Shown here: positions 1,082 to 35,675 of the stretch, in pieces
Position numbering within the stretch: position 1 is the stretch's first letter
How the letters are laid out: the number at the start of each line of letters is the position of its first letter
IMG/VR virus record: IMGVR_UViG_3300045988_117186
Location: 1 to 37,906 of that record
Strand: one strand, 5' to 3'
DNA: 37,906 nucleotides
From: a virus
The notes under the pieces: generated by a model
Databases searched by the model: none
What the model saw: the letters and a program-made list of their open reading frames with translations, nothing else
Told to the model about the DNA's origin: nothing
Translations under genes and position numbers: made by a program

Positions 1082-1289
1082 ACTAGACGAAATTAGAAAA
1101 GAAGTAAATAAAAGAACTGTTCAATATGATAAAAACGAACTTGAAACAAAGCTTTTAGAAAGCCAAAGGGCATCTAGAAACAAGAAAGTAAATAACTACA
1201 TAAGAGATGTTATGTCAGGAAAAATAGAAAGCGAAATACCTAATATGAGAGAATTTATAAAAAATACAATAAGCAGAGGGAACTGTTAG
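1071..1289 (+). CDS. Hypothetical protein (72 aa), TTG start overlapping the upstream stop
   Basis: ORF with SD ggaggag 8-14 nt upstream. No recognisable motif. Confidence 0.5.
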   Translation: MSYKLDEIRKEVNKRTVQYDKNELETKLLESQRASRNKKVNNYIRDVMSGKIESEIPNMREFIKNTISRGNC

Positions 1290-1300
1290 GAGGCGATGAA

Positions 1301-1561
1301 ATGCTAATAGCTGCATCAGATAAGAAATATGGCATGCGTATAGAAATAAGCGAGAAAAGCACTACAGAAGAATTATTAGATGAAACAGTTGAATTTACAA
1401 TAAGAATGCTTATCGAAATAAAGAAAAGAAAAAATATGTCGATGGACGACTTAAAAACAAGTTATATATCATTAATCGAAATGTACATAAAAGAAATTAG
1501 CCAAATAAATTACGATTTAGATGGCATTGACAATGTTATTGATCTAGATTCAAGAAGATAA
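1301..1561 (+). CDS. Hypothetical protein (86 aa)
   Basis: ATG preceded by SD taggaggcg. No recognisable motif. Confidence 0.6.
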   Translation: MLIAASDKKYGMRIEISEKSTTEELLDETVEFTIRMLIEIKKRKNMSMDDLKTSYISLIEMYIKEISQINYDLDGIDNVIDLDSRR

Positions 1562-1623
1562 CATGCAAATAACAACTATAGATTGAGAGGGGCTTGTTAG
1601 TCCCTCGAAAGGGGGATAATCGG

Positions 1624-2166
1624 ATGGCACCAAGACTATCAGATTTAGAAAAGAGAAAGATAAAAAGATTGCATAGCAAAGGCTATTCAATACTTGCTAT
1701 CTCAAATGAAATGGATAGAAGCGACTGGACTATAAGAAAATACATAAAGGATACAAAACTTACTAGAGAACCAAAAGTTGTAGATTTGACAGGTAAAATA
1801 TATGGGAAATTAGTTGTACTAGAACTAGATCACGTAGAAAAACGCAGATACTGGAAATGCAAATGTGAGTGCGGAAATATAACAGTAGTACAAGAGGGAA
1901 ACTTAAAAAGTGGGACAACTAAGAGTTGCGGATGCTTAAGAAAAAACTATATTAACCACAAAAAACTTAACGTGAAACAAGTTAAAACAAGAAATAACCA
2001 AGGTGGAGTTTACTATCTTCAAGCTGGAGAGATAATCTTGAAAGGTAATTATGAAAGCGAGAAAAAATGCAGCAAAATAAAAGAATACAAATTAAGTCCT
2101 GAGGAACTAGAAAAATATCTAGAAAAATTGAAAATTAAAGAGGTGCAATATAGAAAAAACGATTAA
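1624..2166 (+). CDS. Putative DNA-binding protein: N-terminal HTH plus Cys4 zinc-ribbon
   Basis: I prefer the ATG at 1624 (SD aaggggga) to the TTG at 1594. HTH-like SKGYSILAISNEMDRSDWTIRKYI. Phage-typical motif YGKLVVLE..WKCKCECGN..SCGC. Confidence 0.6.
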   Translation: MAPRLSDLEKRKIKRLHSKGYSILAISNEMDRSDWTIRKYIKDTKLTREPKVVDLTGKIYGKLVVLELDHVEKRRYWKCKCECGNITVVQEGNLKSGTTKSCGCLRKNYINHKKLNVKQVKTRNNQGGVYYLQAGEIILKGNYESEKKCSKIKEYKLSPEELEKYLEKLKIKEVQYRKND

Positions 2167-2199
2167 AAATAAAAGAGAGAAGGTTATTTCCCTTCTCTC
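2165..2199 (-). terminator. Intrinsic terminator of the antisense RHH/GIY-YIG operon
   Basis: 9-bp stem GAGAGAAGG(2175-2183)/CCTTCTCTC(2191-2199). On the minus strand it is followed by ttttattttt. It overlaps the stop of the GIY-YIG ORF. Confidence 0.7.
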
Positions 2200-2630
2200 G
2201 ACTTAAGATAATCAGCTATTAACTTTTCTAATATCTTAGATACATCGGTATTTTCTTTGATAGCTTGAACTTTAATAGCTTTAATTAGTTCACTATCAAG
2301 TGTAAGTGGTAGTTTGCTTTTTTTAACATCTTTCAAAGATTTAACTTGAGAACGAGTAGCTTTTGAAGAATTATAACCGTTTTCTATTGAATTATATTTA
2401 TCTATATAATATTGTTCAATACTTACTAATACATCAAGATTTTCGATATTATCTTTTAATATAGAAATATGAAAATGTTCTTTACCAATTTCACTTATTG
2501 CTTTTCCAAGTTTAGTATATTTGGTATTGCAATGCTGTTTAAATCTTTCATGTATAGAATTGGTTGTTTGACCTATATATACTTTAGAATTAACATCATT
2601 AGTTATTATATAGACTTTACAAGTTCTCAT
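2184..2630 (-). CDS. GIY-YIG nuclease domain fused to a C-terminal ribbon-helix-helix domain
   Basis: Motifs KVYIITN, KVYIGQT, R in HERFKQH, E in SIEQYYIDKY, NGYN. C-terminal RHH pattern LPLTLDSELIKAIKVQAIKENTDVSKILEKLIADYLKS. SD taggagg. Confidence 0.75.
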   Translation of the reverse strand: MRTCKVYIITNDVNSKVYIGQTTNSIHERFKQHCNTKYTKLGKAISEIGKEHFHISILKDNIENLDVLVSIEQYYIDKYNSIENGYNSSKATRSQVKSLKDVKKSKLPLTLDSELIKAIKVQAIKENTDVSKILEKLIADYLKSREGK

Positions 2631-2644
2631 TATATCGCCTCCTA

Positions 2645-2812
2645 TTAGCTATTCTTTTTAATAGATTTTAATAATTCAGATATTGCTTTATCTAGCAATT
2701 TAGATATTGGGATCATGCTTTCTTTTGAATATTGTTGTAACTCTTTCCAAAGTTTGGTATCGACTGCATTTGATATCCTTGTTCTGTTTTTTAATTTATA
2801 TTTATCAACCAT
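2645..2812 (-). CDS. Small ribbon-helix-helix protein (55 aa), absent from the ORF track
   Basis: My reverse-complement translation is MVDKYKLKNRTRISNAVDTKLWKELQQYSKESMIPISKLLDKAISELLKSIKKNS*. SD GAGGTG lies 6 nt upstream. It ends 14 nt before the GIY-YIG ATG. Its helix 2 resembles the RHH of the downstream protein. Confidence 0.65.
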   Translation of the reverse strand: MVDKYKLKNRTRISNAVDTKLWKELQQYSKESMIPISKLLDKAISELLKSIKKNS

Positions 2813-2829
2813 TATATCACCTCAGTTTT

Positions 2830-2857
2830 ATTATAATTATTATAATATATATGTCAA
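2830..2857 (-). promoter_or_regulatory. Near-consensus sigma-A type promoter for the antisense cassette
   Basis: On the minus strand: TTGACA (2857-2852), 16 nt, TATAAT (2835-2830). It overlaps the tandem ATTATAAT repeat at 2830-2837 and 2839-2846. Confidence 0.6.
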
Positions 2858-2861
2858 CTAC

Positions 2862-2890
2862 TTGCAAGTGCTTTCAAAAAACGTTACAAT
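2862..2890 (+). promoter_or_regulatory. Near-consensus promoter upstream of the HNH endonuclease gene
   Basis: TTGCAA (2862-2867), 17 nt, TACAAT (2885-2890). It sits back-to-back with the minus-strand promoter. Confidence 0.6.
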
Positions 2891-2924
2891 ATAATTAAGA
2901 AATGAATAACGGAGGTCGAAATAT

Positions 2925-3539
2925 ATGCAAGAACAATGGAAACCTATAGAAGAATTTGAAAACTACGAAGTTAGTAGCTTAGGAAATGTAAGAAGTTTAA
3001 ATTACAAACGAACTGGAGAAATAAAAATACTTAAACCACAACAAGACAAAAATGGATATTTAATCGTTAATTTATATAAAAACAGAAAACTTTTCCATAA
3101 AAAAGTACATCGTTTAGTAGCTGGGGCTTTCATACCTAATCCAAAGAGAAAAACACAAGTAAATCATAAAGATGGAGATAAACAAAATAATAAAATTTCA
3201 AACCTAGAATGGACAACTTGTAAAGAAAATATTATTCATTGTCATGAAACAGGATTATGGAAACCAAAGTATGGAAATGAACACCATAATTACGGGAAGT
3301 GTTTATCAGAAAAAACTAAACAGAAAATGAGAGAGCAAAGAAAAGGGGAATTAAATTCAAATTCTAAAAGAGTAATATGCATAACTACAGGTGAAACATT
3401 TAGATATATAAGAGAAGCAGCAAGACAATATAACGTAGCAGCTGAAAGTATAGGCAGAGCATGTAAAGGACGTTCAAAAACAGCAGGCAGACATCCTGTA
3501 ACAGGTGAAAAATTAAAATGGGAATATGTGGAGGATTAA
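2925..3539 (+). CDS. HNH homing endonuclease (NUMOD4 + HNH_3 + C-terminal NUMOD1/IENR1-like HTH)
   Basis: EQWKPIEEFENYEVSSLGNVRS (NUMOD4). VHRLVAGAFIPNP..VNHKDGDKQNNKISNLEW (HNH). VICITTGETFRYIREAARQYNV (IENR1/NUMOD1-like). Confidence 0.85.
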   Translation: MQEQWKPIEEFENYEVSSLGNVRSLNYKRTGEIKILKPQQDKNGYLIVNLYKNRKLFHKKVHRLVAGAFIPNPKRKTQVNHKDGDKQNNKISNLEWTTCKENIIHCHETGLWKPKYGNEHHNYGKCLSEKTKQKMREQRKGELNSNSKRVICITTGETFRYIREAARQYNVAAESIGRACKGRSKTAGRHPVTGEKLKWEYVED

Positions 3540-3541
3540 AC

Positions 3542-3895
3542 ATGAAAGGTGAAGATTTAGAACAAGCAACTTTGATTCAATGGTGCAACTTACAATCTTG
3601 TAAATATTCAGAATTAAAAATGATATTCGCTATTCCTAATGGGGGATATAGAAATAAAGGAGAAGCTAGAAAACTAAAAGCTACAGGGACAAAATCAGGA
3701 GTGCCAGATTTGTTCCTGGCTGTACCTAGAAATAACAAATCAGGATTATTCATTGAAATGAAGGTTGGACGCAATAAATGCACTGATAACCAAAAGGAAT
3801 GGATTAGAAGGCTAATGGAACAGGGATATGAGGTTAAGGTTTGTTACAGCTGCGAAGAAGCAATACAAACTATCAAGAAATACTTAGGGATTTAG
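3542..3895 (+). CDS. VRR-NUC domain nuclease
   Basis: ATG at 3542 with SD ggagga. Motifs AIPNGG..GTKSGVPDLFL..GLFIEMKVG..Q..W fit the PD-(D/E)xK VRR-NUC pattern. Confidence 0.8.
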   Translation: MKGEDLEQATLIQWCNLQSCKYSELKMIFAIPNGGYRNKGEARKLKATGTKSGVPDLFLAVPRNNKSGLFIEMKVGRNKCTDNQKEWIRRLMEQGYEVKVCYSCEEAIQTIKKYLGI

Positions 3896-3920
3896 ATTAA
3901 ACGTAATAGGGGGAAAAGAA

Positions 3921-4475
3921 ATGGACAGAGAAGAAAAAAATAAATTAGCAGAAGAAAACATAGCATTAGTTTATTCAATAGTTAACAAGAGATTTAATTA
4001 CAAAAGCATTACAAAAGAAGATAAAGAAAACTACATTGGGGAAGGGATTGTAGGGCTAGTAAAGGCAATTAACAAATTCGATGAGAATAAAGGTTTTGCA
4101 TTCTCTACATTCGCCTACAAATGCATAAATGGGGAAATATCTATGTATATAACAAAACAAAAATGTCAAAAGAGAAAGGTTGATGCTGAGTGTAAGGCAT
4201 CAATCGACAACAAAGTGCCACATTGTGAAGAACTAGAATATAGTGATTGGCTAATGGATATGAAAGATGATTATTCTTCTCTAGGAGAAAAAGAACATAT
4301 ATTGGACATGCTTGAAAAAACAAAGATAAAAGATATAAAAACTATTGTTGTAAAGAAAGCAGAAGGATACAAAAATAAAGAAATAGCAAAAATGATTGGA
4401 GCAAACGAAAATACAATCAGGAAAAGATTAGATAAAGCAAGAGATAAATTATTTGAATTAGGGATAACAGCATAG
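3921..4475 (+). CDS. Sigma-70 family RNA polymerase sigma factor (phage-encoded)
   Basis: Region 2-like GEGIVGLVKAINKFDENKGFAFSTFAYKCINGEISMYI. Region 4 HTH-like EGYKNKEIAKMIGANENTIRKRLDKARDKL. SD aggggga. Confidence 0.8.
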   Translation: MDREEKNKLAEENIALVYSIVNKRFNYKSITKEDKENYIGEGIVGLVKAINKFDENKGFAFSTFAYKCINGEISMYITKQKCQKRKVDAECKASIDNKVPHCEELEYSDWLMDMKDDYSSLGEKEHILDMLEKTKIKDIKTIVVKKAEGYKNKEIAKMIGANENTIRKRLDKARDKLFELGITA

Positions 4476-31554: not shown

Positions 31555-33081
31555 TTATATATTTAGTGTTATTTCTAACTCGAAGTAATCCTCATTGCTG
31601 CCTTTTTTACTTTTTTTCTTTTTAGCATAAGTTATTTCTTTTATAATGCTTTTTAACAATTCGTTTTTTCCTTCTATACTAAGAATATTATAATTTTTTA
31701 ATACATTTTCTAATTTAGGTATTAGTTTTTTTATTTTTATAACTTTATCGCTACCAAATTCTTTTTCTAATACTTTTTTATTTTCTTCTAGTATTTTGAT
31801 TTTATCTTTTATTTTACTGGTCCTATCTTTATAAACTTCTATAGTATATACATCTTGTTCTAAAAATGTACAGCATTTTTCAAATTGCTTATTTAGTTTC
31901 TCAATTTCTTTTTCAATTCTTTTTAGATCATTGTCTACATTTCTTTTTTCTTTTATCGTTTCTTGCTCATAATTATCTACATAATATTCATAATCAGATA
32001 ACATATTTGATAATGCTTGTAAAATATGTTCTTCAACTCTATTTAGATAAGAACCTATATTTTTACATCCAGTAGTAGAACAATATAAGAAATCACCTTG
32101 AGAACATCTTCTTTTTACCATGATTCTATTACATTCAGAGCATCTTATTAGCCCAGCAAGTGGATTACTAAGTGGCAAATCAAAGTTAGATTTATGTTGC
32201 TTTCTAGAATTTAATATATCTTGTACCTTTTCAAATTTGTGCAAAGGTATAATTGCTTCATGCAGTCCTTTATAATATTCAACATCTTTATTTACTGGTC
32301 TAGATTTTTTTACATTACCTTTTGCATCTATATATTTCTTATATTTTCTTTCTCCATGTTTGAGATATCCAGCTACTACATTGCTTGTTAATATATTTTT
32401 TACTGAGTTGTAACTCCATACACGACCACTTCTAGTAGGATAGCCTCCTTGATTAAGCCTTTTCGCTATTATGCTAGCACCAATATTATCTTCCAGAAAC
32501 CATTTAAATATTAATTTTACTATATGTGCTTCTTCTTCGTTGATTGTAAGTTTAAAGCCATTTTCTCCCTCTAATTTCTCCTTGTTATAGCCATAAGGAA
32601 GAATAGAGCCTATGTATTTACCTTGTTTTACGGATTGTTCACGACCTCGTTGCATACGTTTCGTGATAGTTTTATATTCCCTTCTAGACATGAACAGTCC
32701 GAAGTCGACCATTTCTTCATCGAACTCATTGTTTGCAAGGTCATAAGTCTTACTTGGTGTAATTATTTTACATTCCGCAGCAGTAAAGGTACTAGATACA
32801 ATTTCTTGGTCTATCTTACTACCTCTACATAACCTTGATAATTCAGTGCAAAAAACACCTTCATATAATCCCTCAGATACTTTTTCTAGTAGGTCCTGCA
32901 TCTTTGGACGGATAGAAATACTATCTCCAGTTTCTATTTCTCGAAATATATTTTCTTCTTCTATCTGTATTTTTAACTTGTCAGCCAATTCCGTTAGCAT
33001 ATTGTAATGATTTTTTAGAACCTTTTCTAATGGAATATCCTTATCATCAGCACGGCTTTTCCTTAAATACATTGCATACAT
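31555..33081 (-). CDS. int: Large serine recombinase (phage integrase)
   Basis: The N-terminal resolvase motif AMYLRKSRADD carries the catalytic Ser. It also has a recombinase domain, the zinc ribbon CSECNRIMVKRRCSQGDFLYCSTTGC, and a coiled-coil C-terminus. Confidence 0.9.
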   Translation of the reverse strand: MYAMYLRKSRADDKDIPLEKVLKNHYNMLTELADKLKIQIEEENIFREIETGDSISIRPKMQDLLEKVSEGLYEGVFCTELSRLCRGSKIDQEIVSSTFTAAECKIITPSKTYDLANNEFDEEMVDFGLFMSRREYKTITKRMQRGREQSVKQGKYIGSILPYGYNKEKLEGENGFKLTINEEEAHIVKLIFKWFLEDNIGASIIAKRLNQGGYPTRSGRVWSYNSVKNILTSNVVAGYLKHGERKYKKYIDAKGNVKKSRPVNKDVEYYKGLHEAIIPLHKFEKVQDILNSRKQHKSNFDLPLSNPLAGLIRCSECNRIMVKRRCSQGDFLYCSTTGCKNIGSYLNRVEEHILQALSNMLSDYEYYVDNYEQETIKEKRNVDNDLKRIEKEIEKLNKQFEKCCTFLEQDVYTIEVYKDRTSKIKDKIKILEENKKVLEKEFGSDKVIKIKKLIPKLENVLKNYNILSIEGKNELLKSIIKEITYAKKKKSKKGSNEDYFELEITLNI

Positions 33082-33146
33082 CTTATTTCCTCCTAATTAA
33101 AAAGAGCAGCTGGTAAAACTGCCCTGATGTTTATCTATATTATTTA

Positions 33147-33572
33147 TTATTTTAAACTTTGGTGTATATATACATCATTTGCATATGTATTTACTATCTC
33201 ATTAGCAACTATGTTACCATCTTTTATGCCTTGGATAGTTTTATTATCTAATGTAAATGATACGACTTTTTCTTCTTTACCATTATCCATATCTGCAACA
33301 GCCCAGTAATCTATTTTATCATACTTATCGCAACCTTGATTTTTTATAAGATCTTCTACATTATAACCATTTTGGTCGATAGTTAACTTGTTAGTAGTAG
33401 AAGGTTTAATTTTAACTTTTATAACTAATCCGTTATCATCTGTTTCATTTGATTCTAGATACTCGCCATGTAAAATAGTATATTCTCCCTTATCATTAGA
33501 GCCACTGCTGGAGCAACCTGCTACTCCAATACACATAATAATACATAGCATTATACTTAATATTTTCTTCAT
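33147..33572 (-). CDS. Prophage lipoprotein (candidate superinfection-exclusion / conversion factor)
   Basis: I prefer the ATG at 33572: MKKILSIMLCIIMCIGVAGCSSS has a signal peptide with lipobox VAGC. Confidence 0.75.
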   Translation of the reverse strand: MKKILSIMLCIIMCIGVAGCSSSGSNDKGEYTILHGEYLESNETDDNGLVIKVKIKPSTTNKLTIDQNGYNVEDLIKNQGCDKYDKIDYWAVADMDNGKEEKVVSFTLDNKTIQGIKDGNIVANEIVNTYANDVYIHQSLK

Positions 33573-33591
33573 AACTCCCCACTCTCCTTTT

Positions 33592-33702
33592 TTATTTTGC
33601 ATTAAATCCCGCATTAAATCCAGCTTTAAAACCAGGCATACCAGCTATAATTATTACTAAAACTACTATAACTAATACCGCAATAATTGCTTTCTTTTTC
33701 AT
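33592..33702 (-). CDS. Small single-TM protein (36 aa), not in the ORF track
   Basis: Reverse-complement translation MKKKAIIAVLVIVVLVIIIAGMPGFKAGFNAGFNAK*. SD aaggggtg lies 6 nt upstream. Confidence 0.5.
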   Translation of the reverse strand: MKKKAIIAVLVIVVLVIIIAGMPGFKAGFNAGFNAK

Positions 33703-33962
33703 AATATCACCCCTTAATATTTTTTCTTAAATTGTAGCAGAAAGCCATATTTATAGCATTACTTTCCAATATAATTTGATAAAAAATTAATTTTTCCCCT
33801 ATATACATGTAAAATATTCTGAAACACTTTTTTGACTTAATGTTTAGTAGTATAATAACATTATAAATATTTCGAAAAAATAATATATATAACTTATAAC
33901 TTGGTGTATAATATATATAAAGAATAAAATAGAACATTTGTTTGCGTTAAGGGGGAATCTAT

Positions 33963-34079
33963 TTGGAAGAAAAGAGTGTATCACTAAAAAACAAAGAAGA
34001 GATATTATTAGTAGACGATGAAATATTAGAAGATATAATAAAAAAAATGCAAAAACAAGTAGAAAATAAAACTGTGTAA
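33963..34079 (+). CDS. Small acidic hypothetical protein (38 aa, TTG start), not in the ORF track
   Basis: SD aaggggga lies 7 nt upstream of the TTG. It is convergent with the repressor gene. Confidence 0.3.
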   Translation: MEEKSVSLKNKEEILLVDDEILEDIIKKMQKQVENKTV

Positions 34080-34080
34080 A

Positions 34081-34110
34081 AAAGAGGGGCTTAGAATTAA
34101 GTCCCTCTTT
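34081..34110. terminator. Bidirectional terminator at the 3' end of the repressor gene
   Basis: 13-bp stem AAAGAGGGGCTTA-gaat-TAAGTCCCTCTTT (one G-U pair), with A/T runs on both sides. Confidence 0.7.
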
Positions 34111-34435
34111 TCATGCTTATTACAAGCCTTATTATGTTATCAAATTCTTCATCAGATAGCTGGTCTGCCAGTCTAAGCGCTTGTTTTTGCTTTTCTGTTA
34201 GATCTTCAATAGGTTTTTTATTTTCATTAATACCTAGCAAATAATCAACTGTAACATCAAAGAATTTTGCTAGTTTAAATAGAGTATCTGAATCACATTT
34301 TCTTCTATTGTTTTCCCAGTTATTGACAGTCTGTTTACTCACATTTAGGGCTTTGCCTAAATCTTCTTGCGTAATATCTTTTTCCAGTCGCAATTCCCTC
34401 AATATATCTCCTTGTGTTTTACTCATATTTTTCAT
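34097..34435 (-). CDS. cI-like XRE-family HTH repressor
   Basis: LRELRLEKDITQEDLGKALNVSKQTVNNWENNRR is an HTH_3 motif. It is divergent from the early operon. Confidence 0.85.
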   Translation of the reverse strand: MKNMSKTQGDILRELRLEKDITQEDLGKALNVSKQTVNNWENNRRKCDSDTLFKLAKFFDVTVDYLLGINENKKPIEDLTEKQKQALRLADQLSDEEFDNIIRLVISMKRGT

Positions 34436-34584
34436 TCCTTCCAGTCATTTCCTTCTTATATAATATTCTACTTTATGAATACTATTCCCTCTAAATTATA
34501 AAGTAATTATAACATATTTGATTATACGAATAATTGTTATTTCAAGAAAATATAACAACGCGAAAACTTTTTTTGAAAATACTG

Positions 34585-34613
34585 TTGACAAGTACACGAA
34601 ACGTATATATAAT
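34585..34613 (+). promoter_or_regulatory. Consensus early promoter (PR-like)
   Basis: TTGACA (34585-34590), 17 nt, TATAAT (34608-34613), located 33 nt upstream of the Cro-like ATG. Confidence 0.75.
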
Positions 34614-34645
34614 GAAAGTATAAATTAAATCAAGGAGGTGCAAGA

Positions 34646-34888
34646 ATGAACTTGATGAATTTAAAAATATACAGAAATGTATATGGTTACACTCAAGAAG
34701 ATTTAGCAAAAGTATTAGGAGTAACTAAAACAAGTTATGCAAATAAAGAAACAGGAAGGAGAAAAATAACATTAACCGAAGCTAAGACGATGGCTGATTT
34801 ATTTGACGTCAGCATAGAAGAACTTTTTTTTAGCCACGAAGTCCACATAAAGGATACTCAATCAAGAAAAGTATGCAGTAATTTATAA
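34646..34888 (+). CDS. Cro-like XRE-family HTH regulator
   Basis: YGYTQEDLAKVLGVTKTSYANKETGRRK is an HTH_3 motif. It is the first gene of the rightward early operon. SD aaggagg. Confidence 0.8.
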   Translation: MNLMNLKIYRNVYGYTQEDLAKVLGVTKTSYANKETGRRKITLTEAKTMADLFDVSIEELFFSHEVHIKDTQSRKVCSNL

Positions 34889-34904
34889 TCAAGGGGGAAA
34901 TAAC

Positions 34905-35675
34905 ATGGATTACATAAAAGAAATGAATAACTTAGTAGCAAGTATAGAAGTGAAAGAATACGAAGGACAACCAGTAGTTAGTAGCAGAGAGGTTGCTACT
35001 AATTTCAACAAAAGACATTCAGATGTATTGAAAACTATAGAAGATAAAATAGAGGTTAACGGAATTTTGCGCTCACCTAAATATTTCATTAAAACTACTT
35101 ATACTGATAAATCAAACAGACAATCAAAAGAATATCTTATGACTAGAGATGGATTTTCATTTTTAGTAATGGGCTTTACTGGAGCTAAAGCAGATGAATG
35201 GAAACTTAAATATATAGAAGCATTCAACAAAATGGAAGAAAAAATAAAAAACATAAATCCGTATGCTGGGATGAGTAAAGAATTACAAGCAATATTTGCA
35301 ATAGATAAAAAACAGCAGCAAATAGAGCAAGATGTAAAAACAGTTACAGAAGATCTAAAAGATTTTAAAAATAATGCACCATTATTTAGCATAGAGTGTG
35401 AAACCTTGCAGAAAGCATTAAGAGGTAAAGTGATAAAAGAAATGGGTGGTAAAAATGCTCTAGCTTATAAAGATAAATCTATTAGAACAAAGATGTATAT
35501 AGATGCACAGAATCAGTTAAAAAGAGAGTTTGATGTATTAAGTTATAAAGCTATAAAACGTTGCCAGTTAGACGATGCTTTAAAAGTTATAGAAGCCTAT
35601 AAGCCACCAACTGTTTACAAGGAAGTTATAGACGCAGTTAACAGACAAATGTTATTAGAAGATACAATTTTATAA
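34905..35675 (+). CDS. Rha-family phage regulatory protein / antirepressor (with ORF6C-like C-domain)
   Basis: VVSSREVATNFNKRHSDVLKTIE..EYLMTRDGFSFLVMGFTGAKADEWKLKYIEAFNKME is the Phage_pRha pattern. Confidence 0.8.
   Translation: MDYIKEMNNLVASIEVKEYEGQPVVSSREVATNFNKRHSDVLKTIEDKIEVNGILRSPKYFIKTTYTDKSNRQSKEYLMTRDGFSFLVMGFTGAKADEWKLKYIEAFNKMEEKIKNINPYAGMSKELQAIFAIDKKQQQIEQDVKTVTEDLKDFKNNAPLFSIECETLQKALRGKVIKEMGGKNALAYKDKSIRTKMYIDAQNQLKREFDVLSYKAIKRCQLDDALKVIEAYKPPTVYKEVIDAVNRQMLLEDTIL

Follow-up and report, generated by a model that had tools for sequence, protein, structure and literature searches.

The minus-strand region described here, part of a window of 37,906 nucleotides (the whole stretch of DNA analyzed, IMG/VR record IMGVR_UViG_3300045988_117186), is probably a compact, free-standing homing-endonuclease cassette that regulates itself. 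It occupies ~0.7 kb and comprises a σ70 promoter, a gene for a 55-residue ribbon-helix-helix (RHH) protein, a gene for a 148-residue protein in which a GIY-YIG nuclease domain is fused to a second RHH (GIY-YIG::RHH), and a terminator. The endonuclease ORF lies at 2184–2630 and the 55-codon gene, which encodes an RHH_3 protein of class C and putative autorepressor of the cassette promoter, at 2645–2812; the 14-nucleotide spacer between them (2631–2644) carries the Shine-Dalgarno sequence of the nuclease, AGGAGG, and that of the 55-codon gene, GAGGTG, is at 2823–2818. The original prediction had listed both minus-strand ORFs, the 14-nucleotide gap and the GAGGTG, and all are present in the sequence. 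The cassette promoter (2818–2857 with the Shine-Dalgarno included) has a −35 box TTGACA (2857–2852), a 16-nucleotide spacer and a −10 box TATAAT (2835–2830), and with 12 of 12 consensus positions it is the best site of the region. It had been described as one of two back-to-back consensus promoters, which is correct for the minus strand but not for its plus-strand partner, TTGCAA-17-TACAAT at 2862–2890, a weak promoter-like site whose 9 of 12 positions are at chance level for an AT-rich region. This site faces the divergent neighbor, a plus-strand gene (2925–3539) for a NUMOD4-HNH_3-NUMOD3 homing endonuclease (NUMOD4, 5e-17; HNH_3, 2.5e-9), and its position upstream of the ribosome-binding site of that HNH gene is kept in L141 and L180.

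At its other end the cassette is closed by an intrinsic terminator on the minus strand (2165–2199), formed by a hairpin at 2175–2199 with a 9-bp stem and a 7-nucleotide loop, followed by a T-run (−19.3 kcal/mol, z −3.6 for hairpin and T-run together). The nuclease gene ends within the stem, which includes its final codons and its stop, and this is the sole terminator-like site within 1500–4000. However, a solo RHH gene in L137 ends in the same 41 bp (2164–2204; 100% identity), and L141 has the site as well; the terminator is thus not private to the cassette and closes solo RHH genes in nuclease-free relatives. The earlier description of a self-contained unit therefore holds for the promoter, the candidate operator and the presence of a terminator, but not for exclusive ownership of the latter.

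The 148-residue protein consists of a nuclease domain (residues 1–92, encoded by 2630–2355), a flexible linker (residues ~93–103) and an RHH (residues 104–148, 2321–2187), all on the minus strand. Residues 6–87 match the Pfam GIY-YIG family (E 1.4e-12), and Tyr7, Tyr18, Arg29, His33, Glu72 and Asn87, which align with the catalytic domain of I-TevI, are invariant across 17 homologs. The AlphaFold2 model has a pLDDT of 86, with low values in the linker (56–68); among solved structures, Foldseek places it nearest to the I-TevI catalytic domain (probability 1.0, TM 0.8), and HMM comparison with the same domain gives an E of 1e-10. Residues 104–147 match the RHH models DUF6364 (6.5e-5) and RHH_1 (1.4e-3) and PHROG 3180, “Arc-like repressor” (1.8e-8), and the sequence matches of this domain in the PDB are the RHH proteins SvtR, AvtR, CopG and omega. 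The domain at 2187–2321 belongs to class B and is predicted to serve in both DNA binding and dimerization of the nuclease. Profile searches, the AlphaFold2 model and Foldseek consequently uphold the proposal, made from the sequence alone, of RHH and GIY-YIG folds, and they bear out the remark that an RHH, in place of the usual NUMOD, IENR1, helix-turn-helix (HTH) or zinc-finger module, is unusual for a GIY-YIG homing enzyme. Literature searches on GIY-YIG or homing endonucleases with RHH domains retrieved no account of a GIY-YIG::RHH fusion or of the gene pair. One source annotates the identical protein as a group I intron-encoded endonuclease, a designation that was rejected because no Rfam intron accompanies the gene, which has a promoter of its own and is antisense to the protein-coding genes on either side; between 1400 and 4200, no intron or other RNA family of Rfam was matched at E ≤ 1.

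The small protein matches Pfam RHH_3 (4.1e-14) and PHROG 3180 “Arc-like repressor” (2e-16), and solo antisense homologs that are 57–66% identical to it occur in L129, L149 and L152. The candidate operator is a perfect 9-1-9 palindrome at 2829–2847, TATTATAAT-A-ATTATAATA, which covers the −10 box and has no other copy in the window. Among the solo class-C homologs, a related palindrome (ATTATAAgTTATAAT) is present over the −10 box in L129 only, the homolog in L149 lacking one. It should be noted that the palindrome by itself would be weak evidence for an operator, because the −10 hexamer supplies its sequence and the surrounding DNA is very AT-rich. Comparison of eight cassettes shows a gradient of conservation, in which the 55-nucleotide promoter/operator is 89% identical in nucleotide sequence, the small RHH 79% identical in amino acid sequence, the nuclease domain 65% and the nuclease RHH 30%; the most conserved 20 nucleotides of the entire cassette lie between the −35 and −10 boxes. 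Within the clade of the window the small RHH is A-like in L221, of class D in L222 and of class C in the window itself. In L222 a 3′ remnant of a class-A gene has been left beside the class-D gene, which shares its upstream block, CATACTTTGTCATACTT, with class-D genes that stand alone, and the upstream blocks of classes A and D are conserved and travel with their RHH genes. The small RHH has been replaced at least twice in this clade, each time together with its own operator. Because the promoter/operator and the small RHH are the most conserved parts of the cassette, and because the small RHH is replaced along with its operator, the 55-residue protein is most likely an autorepressor of the cassette promoter rather than a cognate antitoxin or a competitor for the site of the nuclease. 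The same gradient and replacements favor the “self-regulated nuclease module” that the original prediction had offered as one of two alternatives.

The two RHHs of the window are identical in 11 of 35 residues in one comparison (pairwise BLASTP E 8e-4) and in 11 of 41 in another, and the identity of 8 of 15 residues noted earlier in helix 2 is correct, but the domains belong to different classes and differ in the residues of the β-strand. The RHH tails of the nucleases fall into three classes that have been swapped, and a single 47-residue small RHH precedes nucleases whose RHHs are of three different classes. Small RHH and nuclease RHH do not correspond in class; where the two differ, which is the case in most cassettes, the pairs are A/B, A/C, D/B and C/B. 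These relationships bear on the suggestion that the two proteins compete for one site as a form of immunity, the small RHH neutralizing the nuclease either by forming heterodimers with it or by occupying its targets in the self genome; in the heterodimer form of the model, each complex would have one catalytic domain. RHH domains are obligate dimers, the two RHHs of the window share 11 residues, the class-A′ nuclease RHH of L011, L016 and L224 and the small class-A RHH are clear paralogues (17 of 36 residues identical), and an overlap of 8 nucleotides between the small RHH and nuclease genes in cassettes of the 47-residue type suggests coupled translation, all of which would fit direct inhibition of a partner. 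Nevertheless, the classes differ and do not co-vary in most cassettes, the β-strand residues that differ are those that read DNA, the small gene has been exchanged as a promoter-operator-gene unit while the nuclease was unchanged, and conserved upstream repeats are specific to each class of small RHH, as is expected for self-regulation. Competition or immunity of this kind is therefore very unlikely.

The term “TA-like” had also been applied to the locus; on such a reading the nuclease would be a toxin that kills cells or phage genomes from which the cassette has been lost, and the small RHH a labile antitoxin. The gene order, with a small RHH gene directly ahead of an enzyme gene and a putatively autoregulated promoter driving both, does mimic type II toxin-antitoxin loci with RHH antitoxins (CcdA, RelB, ParD and CopG-type), where the RHH is likewise in the first product, and the 55-residue protein has a weak, below-threshold match to the Pfam CcdA-like family (E 0.051). 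However, the small proteins of all cassettes (44–55 residues) are bare RHH cores that lack the toxin-binding extension, partners are swapped without co-variation, the small gene has been replaced as described above, and all members are in phage contexts at polymorphic insertion sites, including insertions that split genes, a distribution like that of a homing element. The nuclease also has a sequence-reading DNA-binding domain of its own, like site-specific enzymes, and no toxin-antitoxin family was matched; PADLOC gave “homing endonuclease” models and weak matches to the GIY-YIG domain but no assignment to a defense or toxin-antitoxin system. To our knowledge, no toxin class described for such modules consists of a GIY-YIG nuclease fused to a sequence-reading domain. 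An addiction module is thus extremely improbable.

The pair is conserved as a pair, as had been proposed, with a small RHH gene immediately upstream in every homolog that has a readable context, a statement that covers 11 nuclease clusters (41–100% identity) and two loci found through the operator. A search of 1.84 billion proteins returned ~9 cluster representatives at E ≤ 1e-30, indicating a small family of metagenomic phages, and only one family member was found in the genomes of 185,579 species. Among 50,697 phage records there was no match to near-identical DNA, and a protein search of the same records gave only ordinary GIY-YIG enzymes that match the nuclease domain. In a family-profile scan of IMG/VR, L017 was the sole clear full-length member among the 80 loci kept; of the candidates that looked full-length, those inspected (L045, L064, L092, L068, L056, L025 and others) were rejected as NUMOD-type or intron- or nrdD-associated GIY-YIG enzymes with neither an RHH nor a small partner. 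A metagenome scan with the class-A operator 22-mer identified two further cassettes (L223 and L224). The same 22-mer precedes a different, 80-residue RHH gene on the marine contig L225, and its single match in a viral scan, L226, is probably due to chance, because no RHH gene is adjacent. Since the family is rare, the comparative support comes from about a dozen contexts.

In these 12 genomic contexts, all of which have sharp homology boundaries, the cassette is antisense to its neighbors in every case (two-sided p 0.002, computed for 10 of 10 contexts), and the neighbors are varied, including replication genes, SSB, holin, minor-capsid genes and genes for proteins with the metallo-β-lactamase fold. 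In cassettes of the 47-residue type, the shared homology extends from ~58 nucleotides before the small gene to just past the stop codon of the nuclease. Many phages closely related to that of the window (L117, L140 and L142–146) lack both nucleases between the HTH_38 gene and the VRR_NUC gene, and L134 has the same HNH gene (95% nucleotide identity) without the cassette. The block 2164–3265 is 91–92% identical in L001, L007, L010 and L017, whereas its flanks are 72–82% identical or unrelated, so that the 5′ third of the HNH gene (to 3265) travels with the cassette as a single conserved block. At the locus of the window itself, a mosaic hot spot, no near-isogenic pair of filled and empty alleles with a base-precise junction was found. 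In L107/L108 and in L181, a cassette splits a Phage_min_cap2 gene at one site into pieces corresponding to model positions 1–244 and ~267–366, and the gene is unbroken in L219/L220. The cassettes of L107 and L181 share this site and yet have different nuclease RHH classes (B and C), which sits uneasily with the RHH as sole determinant of target specificity; an alternative is that the nuclease tail was swapped after insertion. An outward-facing Shine-Dalgarno sequence and ATG that would restart the split genes are common to L107 and L181 and absent at other loci, and were set aside as a feature of the family.

The same data can be considered in terms of a lysogen-expressed exclusion module, a moron-like defense in which the nuclease cuts superinfecting related phages and the benefit lies mainly in exclusion or competition and not in spread of the element. 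The gut phage of the window is temperate, with a large serine recombinase (31555–33081) and a Rha regulator, and the cassette could be expressed from a silent prophage, because its promoter is of the host type, it is closed by a terminator and it is antisense, as in all contexts examined, within a temperate phage. Exclusion is compatible with homing, since the same cut could serve both. Nonetheless, the presence/absence pattern and the insertions within genes point to mobility of the element, PADLOC detected no defense match beyond those noted above, and the finding of a single family member among the genomes of sequenced species suggests that carriage by prophages of sequenced hosts is rare. 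Exclusion as the main benefit is thus unlikely, although it is given more weight here than either partner inhibition or addiction, and a self-regulated homing cassette is the preferred reading.

The origin of the targeting domain is a separate question. The class-B RHH of the nuclease is 89% identical in amino acid sequence, and 98.6% identical in nucleotide sequence over 141 bp, to a stand-alone 46-residue RHH gene at the same locus in L141; the shared 141-nucleotide stretch includes the terminator, and the flanking genes are ~80% identical. It is conceivable, if rather doubtful, that the targeting domain of the nuclease derives from the regulator of the very allele under attack, that the enzyme homes to the operator of the L141 repressor, and that solo RHHs, by occupying the site, confer immunity against homing. 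A candidate operator in L141 consists of tandem 22-bp GTAAATACGTATT repeats (L141 4258–4301) inside the stretch that is replaced by the cassette. The window holds only chance-level near matches to this motif and, among all loci searched, it is limited to L110/L141, which are the same contig, so the proposal that the target is the operator of a solo repressor is not generalizable. If true, it would imply a shared pool of RHH modules (classes A–D) that are interchangeable as repressor, nuclease guide and protective decoy, and the antisense orientation of small RHH genes, seen in 36 of 36, would reflect a common logic of expression.

In the mechanism proposed for the self-regulated homing cassette, host RNA polymerase would recognize the consensus σ70 promoter and transcribe the two-gene operon from the strand opposite to all neighboring phage genes. 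The first product, a bare RHH dimer, would bind the palindrome over the −10 box and shut off the promoter, so that levels of the nuclease would be low and self-limited. The second product would combine an I-TevI-type GIY-YIG domain with a flexible linker of ~12–15 residues and an RHH of a different class and, because RHH domains fold only as dimers, it should bind its target as a dimer. With the RHH ribbon as its DNA reader, the dimer would position a pair of catalytic domains next to the site, giving a double-strand break in related phage genomes that lack the cassette, and recombinational repair would then copy the cassette and adjacent DNA into the broken genome.

I-TevI, encoded in the td intron of phage T4, provides the closest comparison for the enzyme, since it has the same catalytic domain, with catalytic residues that are all conserved in the 148-residue protein, and the same two-part design of nuclease domain, flexible linker and DNA-binding domain. 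It reportedly represses its own promoter by binding an operator, which is a precedent for limiting a homing nuclease by transcriptional repression. However, I-TevI is a monomer of ~245 residues with a zinc finger, a minor-groove helix and an HTH, is part of a group I intron and is itself the repressor, whereas the cassette nuclease has a 45-residue RHH, which implies a dimer, is free-standing and appears to delegate repression to a separate small RHH. Free-standing GIY-YIG enzymes, SegA–G, are known in T4-like phages, where insertion of homing endonuclease genes has produced “genes in pieces” (review, PMC2988022). The cassette resembles these in intergenic or gene-splitting insertion, in presence or absence among related phages and in co-transfer of flanking DNA. 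Seg proteins have NUMOD/HTH-type binding domains, are encoded on the same strand as their neighbors and are not known to have a dedicated repressor gene, whereas the cassette family is always antisense and has its own promoter, candidate operator, putative repressor and terminator in ~0.7 kb.

For the regulator, the closest parallel is with Arc-type RHH proteins, which repress the native promoter of IS605 elements and whose genes have been noted adjoining homing endonuclease genes (preprint, 10.64898/2026.09.24.754181). There also, an RHH of ~50 residues or fewer inside a mobile element restrains a nuclease and a transposase through the strong promoter of the element, but the nuclease regulated is TnpB or TnpA and not a GIY-YIG enzyme, no RHH is fused to a nuclease, and repression in the cassette is a prediction. 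Controller (C) proteins of restriction-modification systems, which are HTH proteins that act through a feedback loop of activation and repression (review, PMC3874152), are similar in being small DNA-binding regulators encoded upstream of, and co-transcribed with, a nuclease whose dose is set by operators in their own promoter. In those systems, however, a methyltransferase protects the host genome, and the cassette has none.

The cassette would add a new architecture to the GIY-YIG homing endonucleases, an enzyme of ~145–148 residues with an RHH as DNA reader, which implies an obligate dimer, unlike the monomeric I-TevI, and in which at least three classes of reader domain have been exchanged on a constant catalytic domain; a modular nuclease of such small size could also interest engineers. 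It would further indicate that a selfish nuclease gene can bear a full, insulated control unit of promoter, operator, repressor and terminator, always antisense. Together with the Arc proteins that repress IS605 elements, it suggests that braking of mobile nucleases by small RHH repressors may be general. Small antisense RHH genes, which gene callers often overlook, and the nuclease genes paired with them would be markers of hot spots for recombination in the genomes of temperate gut phages.

Both open reading frames of the cassette are present on the minus strand, as the original prediction held, within a long plus-strand block: a 55-aa ribbon-helix-helix (RHH) ORF at 2645–2812, with the Shine-Dalgarno sequence GAGGTG, and, starting after a gap of 14 nt, a 148-aa GIY-YIG::RHH ORF at 2184–2630, with AGGAGG. 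With agreement at all 12 consensus positions, the minus-strand promoter TTGACA-16-TATAAT (2857–2830) outranks every other site in the region, but the claim that two consensus promoters stand back to back is not upheld, since the plus-strand partner agrees at only 9 of 12 positions, no better than chance here. A perfect 9-1-9 palindrome (2829–2847), which occurs once in the window, overlaps the −10 box and is a candidate operator, and a minus-strand terminator hairpin (2175–2199), with a T-run after it, contains the nuclease stop codon.

The two folds read from the sequence were recovered by profile searches. In the 148-aa protein, residues 6–87 match Pfam GIY-YIG (E 1.4e-12) and residues 104–147 match RHH models, the best being PHROG 3180, “Arc-like repressor” (1.8e-8). 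Searched against the PDB, a profile of 17 nuclease homologues matches the catalytic domain of I-TevI at 1e-10, with that domain's Tyr, Tyr, Arg, His, Glu, and Asn aligned and invariant across all 17, and the profile's C-terminal part matches the RHH proteins SvtR, AvtR, CopG, omega, and ParG. The AlphaFold2 model (mean pLDDT 86) shows a linker of low confidence around residues 91–110 and then two C-terminal helices, and its N-terminal domain superposes on I-TevI with a probability of 1.0, a TM score of 0.8, and an rmsd of 2 Å. The 55-aa protein matches RHH_3 at 4e-14; it shares 8 of 15 helix-2 positions with the nuclease tail, the likeness seen at the outset, and the two RHHs are identical at 11 of 35 positions overall (pairwise E 8e-4).

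The pairing of the genes also proved to be conserved. A search of 5.8 billion proteins gave 18 full-length nuclease relatives of 145–150 aa with 43–100% identity, and a small RHH gene lies directly upstream of the nuclease in every relative with readable context; in all 12 contexts the cassette is on the strand opposite to both neighbors. In the commonest type, which encodes a 47-aa RHH, there is an overlap of 8 nt between the small gene and the nuclease start codon, and homology across loci runs from about 58 nt ahead of the small gene to a few bases off the nuclease stop codon, so that the element is about 680 bp long. The family is rare, with 9 representatives at E ≤ 1e-30 as against 49,047 GIY-YIG hits among 1.84 billion proteins, and one member, in a Lachnospiraceae MAG, among the genomes of 185,579 species. 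Searching the open literature yielded no account of a GIY-YIG::RHH fusion or of this gene pair.

Comparison of loci indicates that the pair is a mobile cassette. It adjoins an HNH gene in the replication module in window-type loci (L001–L010, L017), and elsewhere lies between small early genes (L011), between two metallo-β-lactamase-fold genes (L016), within the Phage_min_cap2 gene (L107, L108, L181), or next to SSB (L097), radical-SAM (L101), minor-capsid (L104), P22 AR-like (L105), or holin (L221) genes, with three further contexts in L222, L223, and L224. The L016 flanking genes (1134–3237) are full-length paralogs with weak similarity to Anti-Pycsar Apyc1, and genes like them occur nearby in L011 and L097. 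At the capsid site, three loci (L107 1491–3388; L108; L181 4327–6235) have Phage_min_cap2 split at one and the same point into separately translated pieces corresponding to Pfam positions 1–244 and about 267–366; the gene is uninterrupted, at 435 aa, in L219/L220. The HTH_38–VRR_NUC slot, in relatives of the window phage, holds neither nuclease (L117, L140, L142–146, and others), an HNH gene alone (95% identical to the window's in L134), solo RHH and HNH genes (L137, L141), or the full cassette. The block 2164–3265, which takes in the cassette and the HNH gene's first third, is 91–92% identical, whereas the flanks of the phages compared are 72–82% identical or unrelated, and it looks like a co-transferred tract. 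No group I intron was found at the cassette, and PADLOC returned “homing endonuclease” models only.

The divergent neighbor of the cassette is a plus-strand NUMOD4-HNH_3-NUMOD3 homing endonuclease gene (2925–3539), whose product has a C-terminal part of variable length (194–262 aa among relatives); homology with other cassette-bearing phages ends within it, at 3265–3307. On the other side, a plus-strand gene (1594–2166) encodes a 190-aa HTH_38 protein that PHROG 374 labels “HNH endonuclease” but that has no HNH Pfam match; its Cys-rich segment (residues ∼60–117, including YWKCKCECGN) is present as 2–6 tandem copies in one reading frame in other viral contigs (L121–L130).

The window is a low-G+C phage, close to a whole genome, with genes for a replisome organizer, ThyX, a sigma factor, terminase, structural proteins, an amidase, and a Rha regulator; its first 6.3 kb are identical to a metagenome scaffold of ENA sample ERZ28576508. 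The phage is temperate, as judged from a lysogeny module at 31555–35675 with a minus-strand large serine recombinase (31555–33081) and several small genes, one of the minus-strand ones probably being the repressor, followed by a plus-strand small ORF and Rha. Such a lifestyle, like the moron-like layout of the cassette, agrees with an exclusion function expressed in the lysogen, which we consider unlikely, and which could coexist with homing.

For the small RHH, conservation within the element is informative. Mean identities over eight cassettes of the 47-aa type are 89% (nt) for the 55-nt promoter/operator, 79% (aa) for the small RHH, 65% for the nuclease domain, and 30% (range 11–91) for the nuclease tail; within the element, conservation peaks (95% column identity) over a 20-nt stretch between the −35 and −10 boxes, in TTGCATTGTATTACAAAGTATGaTATAAT. 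Three classes can be told apart among the nuclease tails, A′ (paralogous to the 47-aa protein), B (that of the window), and C (RHH_3 type), all found behind the same class-A small protein. Within the window's clade, the small gene is class C in the window, A-like in L221 (nuclease 66% identical to the window's), and class D in L222 (80% identical). In L222 (440–491) a remnant of some 45 nt, derived from the 3′ end of the class-A small gene and encoding ..NLIIKILKEGVS, persists between the class-D gene and the nuclease start and is direct evidence of a replacement of the repressor module. The class-D gene of L222 shares the upstream block CATACTTTGTCATACTT with solo class-D genes of L137 and L005; solo homologs of the window's class-C gene occur in L129, L149, and L152, and the L129 gene likewise has a similar palindrome across its −10 box. 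Since promoter, operator, and RHH are exchanged together while the nuclease is unchanged, the small RHH behaves, in these comparisons, as a self-contained transcriptional regulator. Inhibition of the nuclease by heterodimer formation or by occupancy of its DNA site, the competition originally proposed, is conceivable for A/A′ cassettes only and is contradicted by these swaps, in which the RHH classes do not co-vary; we regard it as improbable. A true toxin–antitoxin module, to which the pair had been likened, is harder still to credit: it fails on both testable features of membership, the small RHH being swapped without change in the nuclease, and the small proteins being bare RHH cores of 44–55 aa without a tail able to wrap a toxin. 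Arc-type RHH proteins are reported to repress native promoters of IS605 transposons, and Arc genes have been noted beside homing endonuclease genes (preprint 10.64898/2026.09.24.754181). In a marine TARA contig (L225, ∼1160–1441, reverse), an exact copy of the 22-nt class-A operator/promoter sequence is found upstream of the gene for an unrelated 80-aa RHH protein. The N-terminal strand of this protein (ISVRLPDEL) is similar to the one in the 47-aa repressor (FTLRLPNDL), which hints that the 22-nt sequence is the cognate site for this strand type.

At the same locus in L141, a minus-strand stand-alone gene with a TTG start and the Shine-Dalgarno sequence GAGGTG encodes a 46-aa RHH that is 89% identical to the nuclease tail; with its terminator (L141 4061–4201) it matches the window's nuclease 3′ end and terminator (2164–2304) at 98.6% over 141 nt. 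By this resemblance it could be a cassette derivative that lacks the nuclease, or else the source of the nuclease's DNA-binding tail. Its promoter region has two 22-bp tandem repeats (GTAAATACGTATT core) in the stretch replaced by the cassette. Because of these two features, the nuclease may target the operator of the alternative allele's repressor, with solo RHH genes protecting against it, an idea we offer as a hypothesis since only one such allele was found. In L110–L180, loci of relatives fetched with unrelated proteins, tblastn located 36 small RHH genes of classes A–D, all of which run opposite to the phage genes. Seven class-D genes and the one solo class-B gene (L110/L141, one contig) lie at a fixed distance of 110–135 bp upstream of an HNH homing endonuclease gene, divergently, and as such pairs are seen at more than one place in the genome (in L116, L119, and L162 as against L137), the divergent pair may be a mobile unit in its own right.

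By its catalytic domain and the behavior of the element, the enzyme appears to belong among the free-standing GIY-YIG homing endonucleases, but it differs from them in having an RHH as tethered DNA reader, a dedicated upstream putative RHH repressor with its own candidate operator, and an invariably antisense, fully insulated arrangement. From the folds and comparative patterns, we infer that host RNA polymerase would start at the consensus promoter and that the small RHH dimer, on its operator, would shut this promoter and keep the nuclease dose low, the antisense orientation excluding the nuclease gene from the phage's own read-through transcripts. An RHH cannot fold as a monomer; the nuclease would form a dimer through its own RHH, whose ribbon would read the target while the two tethered I-TevI-type domains cut nearby, and repair off cassette-bearing genomes would copy the element with some flanking DNA. 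The nucleases of L107 and L181 do not fit this mechanism neatly, having tails of class B and class C, respectively, yet occupying the same capsid-gene site; the tail was exchanged once the element had been inserted, or else it is not the sole determinant of the site. That the nuclease RHH is very poorly conserved and is swapped between classes would fit retargeting of the element to new sites.
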